A stretch of DNA of 64,000 bases from an uncultured Clostridia bacterium (GTDB lineage: Bacteria > Bacillota > Clostridia > TANB77 > CAG-508), in contig CAKPPO010000008.1 in the NCBI GenBank assembly GCA_934177725.1, forward strand, positions 1,189-65,188, given 5' to 3'. The notes under the pieces were generated by a model, which had not been told where the DNA came from, searched no databases, and saw only the letters and a list, made by a program, of their open reading frames with translations. Position numbers and translations under genes: made by a program. Shown one piece after another: positions 12,748-15,450 of the stretch (its first letter is position 1; each line of letters begins with the position of its first letter).

Positions 12748-15078
12748 TTATCCTATTATTTCTAAACCGGCATATTTTGCCATTAAGCGTTTATGTCCTG
12801 CTTTGTCAAAGTTGATGTCTACTTTTGCATCTTCGCCTTCTTGTTCTATAGAATTTATAGTTCCTTCGCCAAATTTCTTATGGTATACTCTCATTCCTGA
12901 TTGATATTTTGAAATGTCTACATCTTGTTTTGGTTTGTTTAAAGAATTTAGGAAACTTTCTGCAGTTCTAAACGCAAAACCGGAATTGTTATCCACTTTT
13001 TGTGCTTTAGGTGTGGATATGCTTCCTGCAACATTGTATGTTTTTGCATCTGTTTCATTAAATTTATATGTTTTTACTTTTCCAGCGTAATTTGTTCCAT
13101 ATGCCCAGCCATAGTTTGAATCTTCAAATGTCTCTTCCCTATTTCCGTTTATCTCACTATATCCCTCTAGTAATTCTTCTGGAATTTCTTTAACAAAGCG
13201 AGATATTGCATTGTAACTTGTTGAGCCAAATATTGTTCTGTGTTTAGCACATGTTAAATATAAGTATTGTTTTGCTCTTGTAATTCCTACATAGAATAAA
13301 CGTCTTTCTTCTTCTAATTCTTTTGGCTCTCCTATTGATTTGTAACCTGGGAATATTCCTTCTTCCATTCCTACTAGAAATACAACCGGAAACTCTAGAC
13401 CTTTTGCACTATGAAGCGTCATTAATGTAACACTTTCGTCTGTCTCTTGTAAGTTATCTACATCACTAGATAATGTGATACTTTCTAGGAATTCATTTAA
13501 TGAATTTTCTGCATATTCTTCTTCGAATTCCATTGCTACTGTTAATAACTCGTCCAAGTTTTGAATTCTACTTTCTGCTTCTACTGTATTTTCTAATTCT
13601 AAAGCTTTTGTGTAGCCACTTTTGTTTAATACCATTTTTATTAATTCTGATATTTGTGTTTCATCTTTCTTGCTTTTTAATTCTTCTATTAGTTCTATAA
13701 ATTCTCTTGAATTTACAAATACTCTATTTAATCCATACTTATCTGCATGTTTTATTACCTCATACATTGAGTTTCCTGTCTGGTAACTAATTTCTTCAAC
13801 GTTGTCTAAACTTGTTTTTCCTATTCCACGTTTTGGCTCATTTATAATTCTTTTTAGAGATATATTATCTGATTGATTTGCAATTAAACGCAAATATGCA
13901 ATTGTATCTTTTATTTCTTTTCTTTCATAGAATTTTAGCCCACCTACTACTTTGTATGGTATATCTTCTCTTAATAAAATATCTTCTATTGCTCTTGATT
14001 GTGAGTTCATTCTATATAGAATTGAGAAGTCTGAATATTTAAAATACTCCTCTGTTTTTAAATAATTTATTTGTTCAACTATGTATCTCGCTTCGTCATA
14101 TTCGTCGTCGCCTTGATAAATTGCTGGTAACTTTCCTTCTTCATTTTCTGTCCATAGTTTTTTCTCATATTTTGTTTCATTATTTTTTATTACATAATTT
14201 GCTGCTTTTAAAATATTTCCTGTGCAACGATAGTTTTGCTCTAATTTAATTATTTTTGTTCCTGGAAAGTCTTTTTCAAAGTTTAATATATTAGAAATAT
14301 CTGCTCCACGGAAGCTATAGATTCCTTGGTCATTGTCCCCTACAACTGTAATGTTTCCATATCTTGAGGCTAAAATTGTTACTAATGTAAATTGAGCTTT
14401 GTTTGTATCTTGGTATTCGTCTACTAATACATATTTGAATTTCTCTGTATAATATTCTAGTGCATCTGGATTTTCTGTTAATATTTTTATTGTATAATTT
14501 ATTATATCATCAAAATCTATTGCATTATTTTCTTTTAAACGTTTTTGATATAGAGTATATATTTCTCCTATTTTTGCTTTTCTAAAGTCTGCTTGATATT
14601 TAACGCAGTATTGCGTAGGTTCTAACATTTCGTTTTTTGCATTGCTTATTTCTGATAAAACGCTTCTGTCCGTAAATATTTTATCGTCTATATTTAATGC
14701 TTTTAAACATTCTTTTACTAATGTTCTTTGATCTTGAGTATCAAATATTAGAAATGATGAATCGAAACCTATTCTGTCTATATATTTTCTTAAAATACGC
14801 ACGCAAATAGAGTGGAATGTTCCCATCCATATATCTTTTGCAACTTCTCCTACTAGTCCTTCTATTCTTTCTTTCATTTCGTTAGCTGCTTTATTTGTAA
14901 ATGTTATTGCTAGTATATTCCATGGTGCTATGTTCTTTTCGGCTATTAAGTATGCTATTTTGTGTGTTAATACCTTTGTTTTACCACTTCCTGCACCTGC
15001 TATTACCAAACATGGTCCTTCTGTTTCTAACACCGCTTCTTTTTGTTTATTGTTTAATCCTTCTATTAACTCTTGCAT
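12748..15078 (-). CDS. pcrA: ATP-dependent DNA helicase PcrA (UvrD family)
   Basis: AGAGSGKT, DEYQDTN and the remaining SF1 motifs. Start taken at the ATG (MQELIEGLNNKQKEAV) with GGAG upstream. Confidence 0.9.
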   Translation of the reverse strand: MQELIEGLNNKQKEAVLETEGPCLVIAGAGSGKTKVLTHKIAYLIAEKNIAPWNILAITFTNKAANEMKERIEGLVGEVAKDIWMGTFHSICVRILRKYIDRIGFDSSFLIFDTQDQRTLVKECLKALNIDDKIFTDRSVLSEISNAKNEMLEPTQYCVKYQADFRKAKIGEIYTLYQKRLKENNAIDFDDIINYTIKILTENPDALEYYTEKFKYVLVDEYQDTNKAQFTLVTILASRYGNITVVGDNDQGIYSFRGADISNILNFEKDFPGTKIIKLEQNYRCTGNILKAANYVIKNNETKYEKKLWTENEEGKLPAIYQGDDEYDEARYIVEQINYLKTEEYFKYSDFSILYRMNSQSRAIEDILLREDIPYKVVGGLKFYERKEIKDTIAYLRLIANQSDNISLKRIINEPKRGIGKTSLDNVEEISYQTGNSMYEVIKHADKYGLNRVFVNSREFIELIEELKSKKDETQISELIKMVLNKSGYTKALELENTVEAESRIQNLDELLTVAMEFEEEYAENSLNEFLESITLSSDVDNLQETDESVTLMTLHSAKGLEFPVVFLVGMEEGIFPGYKSIGEPKELEEERRLFYVGITRAKQYLYLTCAKHRTIFGSTSYNAISRFVKEIPEELLEGYSEINGNREETFEDSNYGWAYGTNYAGKVKTYKFNETDAKTYNVAGSISTPKAQKVDNNSGFAFRTAESFLNSLNKPKQDVDISKYQSGMRVYHKKFGEGTINSIEQEGEDAKVDINFDKAGHKRLMAKYAGLEIIG

Positions 15079-15098: not shown

Positions 15099-15127
15099 TT
15101 GACATATTTAACATTTTTGTTTATAAT
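15099..15127 (+). promoter_or_regulatory. consensus sigma-A promoter TTGACA-N17-TATAAT on the plus strand
   Basis: TTGACA at 15099..15104 and TATAAT at 15122..15127, with exactly 17 nt between them. Lies antisense to the pcrA upstream/5' region (just upstream of the 15078 start used here). Confidence 0.5.
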
Positions 15128-15133
15128 ATATTT

Positions 15134-15216
15134 AGAAAATGAGAAACCACAAACGTGGTTGCCTAAGATATGTTTTAACAACACATTGCTCGGGAAAGCT
15201 AGATGTGTTGTTTTTT
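15134..15216 (+). ncRNA. predicted small RNA, convergent with the 39-aa hydrophobic ORF
   Basis: Bounded by the consensus promoter and a plus-oriented terminator (AACAACACAT..ATGTGTTGTT followed by T6). Contains the hairpin AACCACAAACGTGGTT and has no ORF. Confidence 0.4.
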
Positions 15217-15221
15217 ATTGG

Positions 15222-15341
15222 TTATTTGCTTTTGCTCAAAATAATAACTAGTGCTATTATCAAGGCTATGGCAATGATAGTTATAAATATTAAAGAATAA
15301 AATAATATGTATATTATGCTCACTAATACTGATTCTATCAT
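15222..15341 (-). CDS. 39-aa hydrophobic peptide (type I toxin-like small membrane protein)
   Basis: MIESVLVSIIYILFYSLIFITIIAIALIIALVIILSKSK with an AGGAGGTG RBS. The SD can pair with an upstream CCTCC. Too short to appear in the ORF track. Confidence 0.35.
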   Translation of the reverse strand: MIESVLVSIIYILFYSLIFITIIAIALIIALVIILSKSK

Positions 15342-15450
15342 AAGCCTCACCTCCTTTAATTGGAGGCAACCACATCTTTGCTTAATCTCATTTTCTATGT
15401 TATTTAGTCTATACTATTTTTTATATATTGTCTAGCGAACATTCAAAATT

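Follow-up and report, generated by a model that had tools for sequence, protein, structure and literature searches.

A probable family of type I toxin-antitoxin modules in uncultured gut Clostridia, with a peptide mRNA leader resembling its predicted antisense RNA

A stretch of 64,000 nucleotides from the genome of an uncultured Clostridia bacterium (assembly GCA_934177725.1, contig CAKPPO010000008.1; the whole stretch is called here the window) contains an unannotated cassette of about 336 bp, at positions 15099..15434, between two genes that Pfam identifies as encoding a low-molecular-weight phosphotyrosine phosphatase and a PcrA/UvrD helicase (pcrA). Both strands of this region were read; the host genome has 1.39 Mb and 27% G+C. 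The cassette carries on its minus strand a very short gene for a hydrophobic peptide and, converging on it from the plus strand, a predicted gene for a small RNA complementary to the 3' untranslated region (UTR) of the peptide mRNA. About 100 copies of this family were collected from relatives, and because the whole arrangement recurs in them the feature lies far beyond chance. We consider the cassette to be probably a type I toxin-antitoxin module, located on the chromosome, and its family to be absent from the libraries and papers searched. A preliminary description made from the window alone had called it a type I-like locus; each structural point of that proposal is backed by the comparative data reported here, and the pattern of gene decay fits it too.

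The peptide gene is an open reading frame (ORF) of 39 codons plus stop (15222..15341, minus strand), with its ATG at 15341 and its TAA at 15224..15222, as defined by the list of ORFs and by the family alignment, and it lies exactly where the preliminary description had put it. The ORF encodes MIESVLVSIIYILFYSLIFITIIAIALIIALVIILSKSK and has no CGG codon. The ATG is preceded at 8 nucleotides by the Shine-Dalgarno (SD) sequence AAAGGAGGTGA, whose GGAGG core is the complement of 15350..15354. A GUG at 15350 was considered as the start codon and discarded: it lies inside the SD, and the family alignment begins at the AUG. Among 89 non-redundant loci the ORF was intact and preceded by an SD in 75. 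The ratio of non-synonymous to synonymous substitution rates (dN/dS) was 0.41-0.58 within length classes, compared with 0.54-0.78 in the +1 control frame and 1.1-1.7 in the +2 frame, and codon position 2 was the least variable position of the ORF family, which is a signature of selection for hydrophobic residues. The window peptide has a grand average of hydropathy of 2.26 and a maximum 19-residue hydropathy of 3.55, and AlphaFold2 modelled it as one helix spanning residues 2-38 with a predicted local distance difference test score of 96.8. As modelled, this putative toxin crosses the membrane as one helix, acidic at its N-terminus and basic at its C-terminus. An acidic residue occurred within the first six positions in all 71 distinct variants, and the last six positions of these variants held 113 basic against 7 acidic residues. 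The gene is in this way one for a small (<60 residues) hydrophobic membrane peptide, as is usual in type I systems.

Three variants of the peptide had no match at E <= 10 in Pfam or NCBIfam, and a full-text search with characteristic peptide strings matched no paper. When the 42-codon GUG-started form of the peptide was used as query, merely five called proteins of the family were found among 5.8 billion protein clusters, none with a Pfam domain. A second class of peptides, of 34-35 residues (MVEFLLILIIGFMISITINVALLSIMYVIWTNKE), was observed at five loci (L021, L022, L039, L040 and L041) together with a homologous leader, small RNA and promoters; in genome G016 it takes the place of the 39-residue class at the orthologous pcrA locus (L022, G016:C4). 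Another variant (L016) has an internal duplication of 7 residues, which gives a peptide of 46 residues, and an insertion of about 60 nucleotides in the leader.

The promoter predicted for the peptide mRNA consists of TAGACA (15434..15429) and TAGACT (15411..15406) with a spacer of 17 nucleotides (15406..15434, minus strand), and scores 9/12. In an alignment of 60 distinct copies it was kept in a sub-consensus form, with TTGnnn or TAGACA separated by 17 nucleotides from TATAGT, TATACT or TAAAAT. Type I systems usually have a weaker toxin promoter that faces a consensus antitoxin promoter. The hexamer GTTCGC (15435..15440, minus strand) abuts the -35 box and does so in 22 of the 60 distinct copies; a LexA box at this place was rejected, there being no palindromic partner and no more than those 22 occurrences, and the hexamer could be the half-site of a regulator or part of an UP-like element.

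Transcription of the peptide gene is predicted to start near 15398, leaving a leader of about 57 nucleotides (15342..15398, minus strand). This contains, in order, a block A (AUAGAAAAUGAGA, 15398..15386), a block B (GUGGUUGCCU, 15373..15364), an anti-SD CCUCC (15366..15362) and the SD core GGAGG (15354..15350). The earlier proposal that the SD can pair with an upstream CCTCC (complement of 15362..15366) was accurate in both positions, and the resulting SD hairpin was kept across the family. In 61 distinct leaders the mean pairing probability of the SD core was 0.92, compared with 0.44 when the upstream part was shuffled, and it exceeded 0.8 in 93% of the leaders and in 5% of the controls. Two types of leader reach this by different sequences: in the short type GCCUCC pairs with GGAGGU, and in the long type, where a hairpin that is itself covarying has been inserted, CUACCAC pairs with GUGGUGC. 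Upstream ORFs in the leader, at the AUG of block A and at the AUG of GAUGUGG (here MWLPP..), were rejected as coding sequences for lack of conservation and of an SD; their frame and stop vary between copies and they are absent from the long-leader variants.

On the opposite strand, the predicted small RNA has a promoter TTGACA-17-TATAAT at 15099..15127 (plus strand), which was correctly noted in the preliminary description as a perfect match (12/12) and is kept across the family. Only 27 such perfect sites occur on both strands of the 1.39-Mb genome. Among 30 copies from the genus, 29 have a TTGACA/TTGACT-15-18 nt-TATAAT-like promoter facing the ORF from downstream, and in 24 the match is perfect, with a spacer that is free to vary in sequence. 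In named metagenome-assembled genomes (MAGs), an independently ascertained set, the pattern of an antisense promoter was found beside 67 of 73 intact ORFs, the chance expectation for this loose pattern being 0.014 per 220 nucleotides. The small-RNA gene itself was detected with a covariance model beside all 73 of these ORFs, which came from a peptide-based search.

The small RNA, a putative antitoxin, is predicted from this promoter, a terminator and the covariance model (R1, with which the window copy scores 69.2 bits) to be about 85 nucleotides long (15134..15216, plus strand). It ends in a bidirectional terminator hairpin (15177..15216, both strands), supported by folding and covariation, with arms at 15177..15186 and 15203..15212 and a run of six T at 15211..15216. 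A second hairpin, AACCAC-AAAC-GTGGTT (15145..15160, both strands), lies inside the small RNA and is likewise supported by covariation; on the mRNA strand it is followed by UUUCUCAUUUUCU and forms a second, distal terminator-like site. The terminator with its T6 tail ending near 15216 had been recognized in the first reading of the sequence, which counted two hairpins besides it; we find one internal hairpin and the terminator hairpin. Every part of the predicted RNA is complementary to the 3' UTR of the mRNA for the peptide, and none of it reaches the ORF: its T run ends 6 nucleotides before the stop codon. At the level of sequence there is, therefore, an RNA gene with extended complementarity to the toxin mRNA, as in type I systems, and the suggestion of a convergent RNA over the 3' UTR gains backing from the conservation of the promoter and the covariation of the hairpins.

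Covariation was assessed on a model-based alignment of 94 matches (87 distinct), which replaced a MAFFT and RNAalifold consensus that had given 3 pairs because insertions and deletions misaligned the terminator. In this model-fitted alignment compensatory changes were found at 17 of 17 pairs of the two helices (10 in the terminator and 7 in the internal hairpin). Cells were paired in 92% of cases as opposed to 77.3% in shuffles, and those with a double change numbered 156, against 31.6 +/- 4.5 in shuffled alignments and 8-38 with slid partners. G-U pairs showed no strand bias (27 vs 33) and were uninformative as a guide to which strand carries the selected hairpins; the absence of a preference fits a bidirectional terminator and hairpins used on both strands. 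Rfam searches of the module region returned only sub-threshold noise, namely LhrC at 19.3 bits (threshold 110) and BsrG at 13.8 bits (threshold 55, E 0.8).

A DNA search found the unit of about 330 bp, whole or partial, in 30 of 41 related genomes, with up to 10 matching places in each. We fetched 42 loci from these relatives and 80 more from a peptide-pattern scan of species genomes, in which 128 loci were confirmed to encode a relative of the peptide. The hosts are titled in their records as uncultured Clostridia or Clostridium MAGs from human, mouse, rabbit and goat gut; they include 'Clostridium sp. CAG:245' and 'CAG:354', which we take to belong to the GTDB order TANB77. The covariance model of the small RNA located 1-7 copies in 71 of 201 sampled genomes, in 20 of the 32 genera of the order. 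No match to the small RNA was seen outside the order: of 300 genomes sampled across the class, 4 matched, all from the window's own family. The family is probably restricted to one order. GenBank phages, PLSDB plasmids and IMG/VR viral contigs gave no match to the module, and carriage on mobile elements was rejected on this ground. The paralogous copies, and the conservation of the ORF and the promoter among relatives, that the preliminary description had suggested looking for are both present in this multi-copy family.

In the genome of the window a second intact peptide gene was observed at C5:67503-67748 (L132 724..876, minus strand), directly downstream of spo0A and convergent with mscL; this second peptide copy, MIEIELLSIIYILFCGLLEMTIIAIALVIALAIILSKSK, is 74% identical. 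This C5 copy has neither the distal hairpin nor a consensus antisense promoter, and TTAAAA-18-TATAAT alone faces its peptide gene. The same genome has three orphan small-RNA genes with no peptide ORF, at C17:39488-39580, C29:32-81 and C5:70116-70213. Those on C17 and C29 have near-consensus promoters (TTGACT-~17 nt-TATAAT), and that on C17 keeps a Lys-stop remnant, AAATAA, beside its terminator. Elsewhere, one locus (L032, G009:C44) holds two complete modules about 470 nucleotides apart, and two others (L010 and L094) each have an extra small-RNA gene beside the module.

The way in which these modules decay is asymmetric. At the pcrA locus the module is intact in three relatives (G014, G004 and G024). 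In G011, whose flanks are 99-100% identical, the segment corresponding to window positions 15235..15370, with the ORF and the SD, is gone and the RNA gene and both promoters are kept. G013 has a different deletion of the ORF and also retains the RNA gene; G006 shares the right-hand junction of G013 and has lost the RNA gene as well. Only the peptide promoter remains at this locus in G003, and in G019 everything between the two -10 boxes is missing, which fuses the peptide promoter directly to pcrA. The peptide gene has, then, been deleted at least twice at the pcrA locus of relatives with the RNA gene retained. Over the family, 14 of 89 non-redundant small-RNA loci have no intact ATG-started ORF; in at least nine of these 14 the peptide gene is 5'-truncated, start-less or internally deleted, and one more has GTG for ATG. 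Small-RNA genes that have no peptide gene beside them are frequent. The opposite situation, an intact ORF without an RNA gene, was met once in about 100 copies, in the C5 copy of the window's genome. Loss of the ORF with retention of the RNA is what a toxin with its antidote predicts, and this asymmetry is the main indirect argument for the toxicity of the peptide.

A further feature of the module is the resemblance between the peptide mRNA leader and the small RNA. Both start with AUAGAAAAUGAGA, and about 10 nucleotides further on both have GUGGUU(U)GCC. The leader accordingly repeats the 5' half of the small RNA in the same sense, which makes it complementary to the 3' UTR of its own mRNA. 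A complementarity of 10 nucleotides between GTGGTTGCCT (complement of 15364..15373) and AGGCAACCAC (complement of 15155..15164) had been described as a possible 5'-3' lock. It is exact at these places and larger than was claimed, since AUAGAAAAUGAGA (15398..15386) adds a second block, with UCUCAUUUUCUA (complement of 15133..15144) as its partner. The complementarity is kept among the copies and covaries. Duplexes of leader and 3' UTR had a mean energy of -38.1 kcal/mol for own pairs and -32.7 for cross pairs, with shuffles at -13.9 +/- 3.4. For block B alone the values were -22.1 for own and -18.2 for cross pairs, a result that none of 5000 label permutations reached. The matched variants are GUGGUUUGCC, GUGCUACCA, GUGUGUUGCC, GUGUUACC, GUGCUAUCAC and GCUUACCU, and wherever one of them stands in a leader, the small RNA belonging to that copy has it too. 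Gene conversion is unlikely to have caused this matching because the sequence between the blocks differs between leader and small RNA; selection for pairing of the leader with the 3' UTR appears to be the simplest reading. The predicted fold of the full-length window mRNA has an energy of -77.3 kcal/mol (z -7.5) and includes a 5'-3' helix of 14 bp and 9 bp. In modelling of 31 non-redundant copies, the first 40 nucleotides of the leader paired with the 3' UTR with a mean probability of 0.68.

From this anatomy, its conservation and covariation and the decay of the genes, we infer that both RNAs are transcribed, that the peptide is toxic and that the small RNA neutralizes it in the following manner. 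A moderately strong promoter would give an mRNA of about 260 nucleotides for the 39-residue single-helix membrane peptide, the ribosome-binding site of which would be locked in the leader hairpin. The near-perfect convergent promoter would produce the small RNA of about 85 nucleotides in excess, and this would pair fully with the 3' UTR of the mRNA, over the shared terminator, the distal hairpin and the tail, competing there with the leader for its site. The duplex would probably mark the mRNA for double-strand-specific cleavage or decay, so that the peptide is not made. Blocking of toxin synthesis by the small RNA is suggested by the full complementarity over about 85 nucleotides together with the modelling. 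A direct action on the 5' region has no such basis: the duplex of the small RNA with the toxin 5' region had an energy of -29.6 kcal/mol, not significantly better than that of shuffles (-25.4 +/- 4.5), so that the mode of action of Fst or SprA1 does not apply.

Several observations weigh against the toxin-antitoxin interpretation. The intact C5 copy, with no recognizable promoter for a cognate RNA and no distal hairpin, is awkward if the peptide is strongly toxic. Values of dN/dS of 0.4-0.6 indicate merely moderate constraint on the peptide. Moreover, 40% of the modules lie directly upstream of a co-oriented housekeeping gene, which leaves room for a cis-regulatory role. Finally, the alignment used for covariation was fitted to the model, which favours structure and inflates the pair counts somewhat; the conclusion drawn from it is nevertheless safe, because the effect is large and many distinct stem sequences are visible by eye.

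Beyond serving as an ordinary antisense antitoxin, the small RNA may act as a molecular mimic of the toxin leader, an idea that we put forward tentatively and regard as possible rather than likely. In the free mRNA, according to this model, the 3' UTR would capture the leader through blocks A and B. As the anti-SD strand is partly contained in block B, this capture should loosen the SD hairpin, and the 3' UTR would serve as an internal activator of translation. Carrying both blocks itself, the small RNA could take the place of the leader on the 3' UTR; at a distance of about 190 nucleotides from the bound 3' UTR, the SD hairpin would then close, and the new duplex would be cut. Modelling supports this in part. 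When the 3' UTR was blocked, the pairing probability of anti-SD and SD rose from 0.46 to 0.85 over the 31 copies, by more than 0.3 in 19 of them; total pairing of the SD was hardly altered (0.87 vs 0.93). Alternatively, by analogy with hok or aapA, the 5'-3' helix may just yield a stable, inert mRNA.

Other functions were considered for the cassette as a whole. The peptide might be a harmless small membrane protein, for instance a modulator of a transporter or sensor, whose synthesis a cis-antisense RNA adjusts. A useful protein, too, could be under the purifying selection observed, and the one intact copy that apparently has no RNA of its own would suit this reading, but such a protein would not be expected to occur in a patchy and multi-copy manner (71 of 201 genomes, 1-7 copies each) nor to be lost repeatedly while its RNA is kept. 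It also has no conserved protein-coding partner gene, the flanking genes varying between copies, and a locked SD together with a consensus antisense promoter is the usual signature of a product that is to be kept off. We therefore think this function unlikely. Still less likely, in our judgement, is that the cassette acts in cis as a leader or insulator for the gene that follows it, here pcrA, with the small ORF as a leader peptide and the two terminators and the antisense promoter setting the read-through. Of 67 family loci, 27 have a housekeeping gene in the same orientation that begins 14-60 nucleotides past the -35 box of the small RNA, and the deletion in G019 joins the peptide promoter to pcrA. 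However, 60% of the copies have no such gene downstream, the genes found there are functionally unrelated, the second copy in the window's genome faces the convergent mscL, and neither selection on a hydrophobic peptide nor orphan RNA genes would be expected for an attenuator.

The multi-copy nature of a unit of about 330 bp, its presence at many different loci and the inverted similar sequences at its flanks also recall a miniature mobile repeat, in which the two promoter-proximal blocks would be inverted ends of about 45 bp and the ORF and the promoters incidental. This is highly improbable. At the pcrA locus the module is found in synteny in different species, and its decay proceeds through internal deletions instead of clean excision; neither a target-site duplication nor an empty site was seen among the copies, and the phage, plasmid and viral collections searched gave no match. 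The ends are alike in just two short blocks, which covary, and the ORF, the SD hairpin and the promoters are under selection. A type I toxin-antitoxin module accounts for these features and remains the probable interpretation.

In general layout the module resembles those Gram-positive type I systems whose antisense RNA lies to the 3' side (PMC8594479). Like bsrG/SR4, TxpA/RatA, BsrE/SR5 and YonT/SR6, it combines a short hydrophobic peptide whose C-terminus is charged with a small RNA that is encoded convergently and is complementary to the 3' portion of the mRNA, and its SD, too, lies within a double-stranded region of the mRNA. Binding of SR4 at the 3' end of bsrG promotes decay and tightens the sequestration of the SD (PMC3834814), an effect that resembles the remote action on the SD that we propose for the window module. 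The likeness to txpA/RatA and bsrG/SR4 pointed out in the preliminary description therefore holds for the layout; it does not extend to sequence or RNA-family membership, as neither peptide nor RNA homology with the TxpA/BsrG family was found (no match in Pfam or NCBIfam, and BsrG of Rfam below threshold). The antisense RNAs of that family reach into the 3' end of the ORF (PMC8594479), whereas the window RNA ends at 15216, before the stop codon at 15222..15224. Unlike the bsrG/SR4 group, moreover, the window module duplicates the 5' half of its small RNA, in the same sense, in the mRNA leader; it is chromosomal and was not seen on prophages in the phage, plasmid and viral collections searched.

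The Fst/RNA II system of par (pAD1) also shows convergent transcripts with a common bidirectional terminator, an overlap limited to the 3' UTR (PMC8594479), a leader hairpin that hides the SD and short repeats common to the 5' parts of both RNA genes; in SprA1 the overlap likewise excludes the ORF. Yet in par direct repeats make the two 5' regions complementary and allow an interaction outside the overlap (PMC8594479), which is not the case in the window module, where the repeats are inverted on the DNA and the two 5' regions are thus of the same sense. Pfam gave no match of the window peptide to the Fst type. Long-range 5'-3' pairing is known from the hok mRNA (Franch et al. 1997, as cited in PMC8594479) and from the aapA mRNAs of H. 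pylori (PMC6733600), and the predicted pairing of the full-length toxin mRNA in the window module is comparable to that of hok/Sok and AapA/IsoA. Both hok/Sok and AapA/IsoA have antisense RNAs directed at the 5' region or the ORF, and their mRNAs are activated by trimming of the 3' end. In the window module, by contrast, it is the 3' strand of the long-range helix itself that the predicted antisense RNA would cover, all of its pairing falling within the 3' UTR; the peptides are unrelated (no Pfam match) and the hosts of hok/Sok and AapA/IsoA are Gram-negative. CD2517.1/RCd8 and its relatives in C. difficile come from a host of the same class and share no more than general traits with the window module: their small membrane peptides are likewise charged at the C-terminus, their antitoxins are antisense RNAs and they occur in several copies per genome (PMC6563280). 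Their peptides of 34-59 residues have a long Lys-rich tail (PMC6563280), by which description the window family is set apart, and they lie beside clustered regularly interspaced short palindromic repeat (CRISPR) arrays and in prophages (PMC6563280), a context that was not seen here. By these comparisons the modules, although of the known type I kind, appear to form a new family with a regulatory variant of its own.

The family is abundant in the small genomes of uncultured gut Clostridia, being present in about one third of the sampled genomes of the order with several copies in each, and it is invisible to gene callers and outside the curated protein and RNA families. Its roughly 100 natural variants are an unusually rich record of covariation for a toxin mRNA, one in which the leader copies the antitoxin and the mRNA could in this way pair with itself at the binding site of the antitoxin. 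Should the interpretation be correct, the catalogue of RNA-controlled toxins would extend to a major lineage of uncultured gut bacteria, and the module would offer a compact system for studying the control of a remote ribosome-binding site through events at a 3' UTR to which an RNA binds.

The genes that follow the module at the 27 loci mentioned resemble ruvA, fhs, radA and a topoisomerase gene, that of the window being pcrA, and are probably transcribed through it. As the module stands directly upstream of pcrA, ruvA and such genes, it bears on the transcription of these housekeeping functions. Concerning the start of pcrA in the window, the longest ORF begins at 15114, and a family-typical N-terminus, MQELIEGLNNKQ, begins at 15078 behind a GGAG. 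The longer version is unlikely because the -35 box of the small-RNA promoter (15099..15104) falls between the two positions, and from the likely start at 15078 this box is about 20 nucleotides away.

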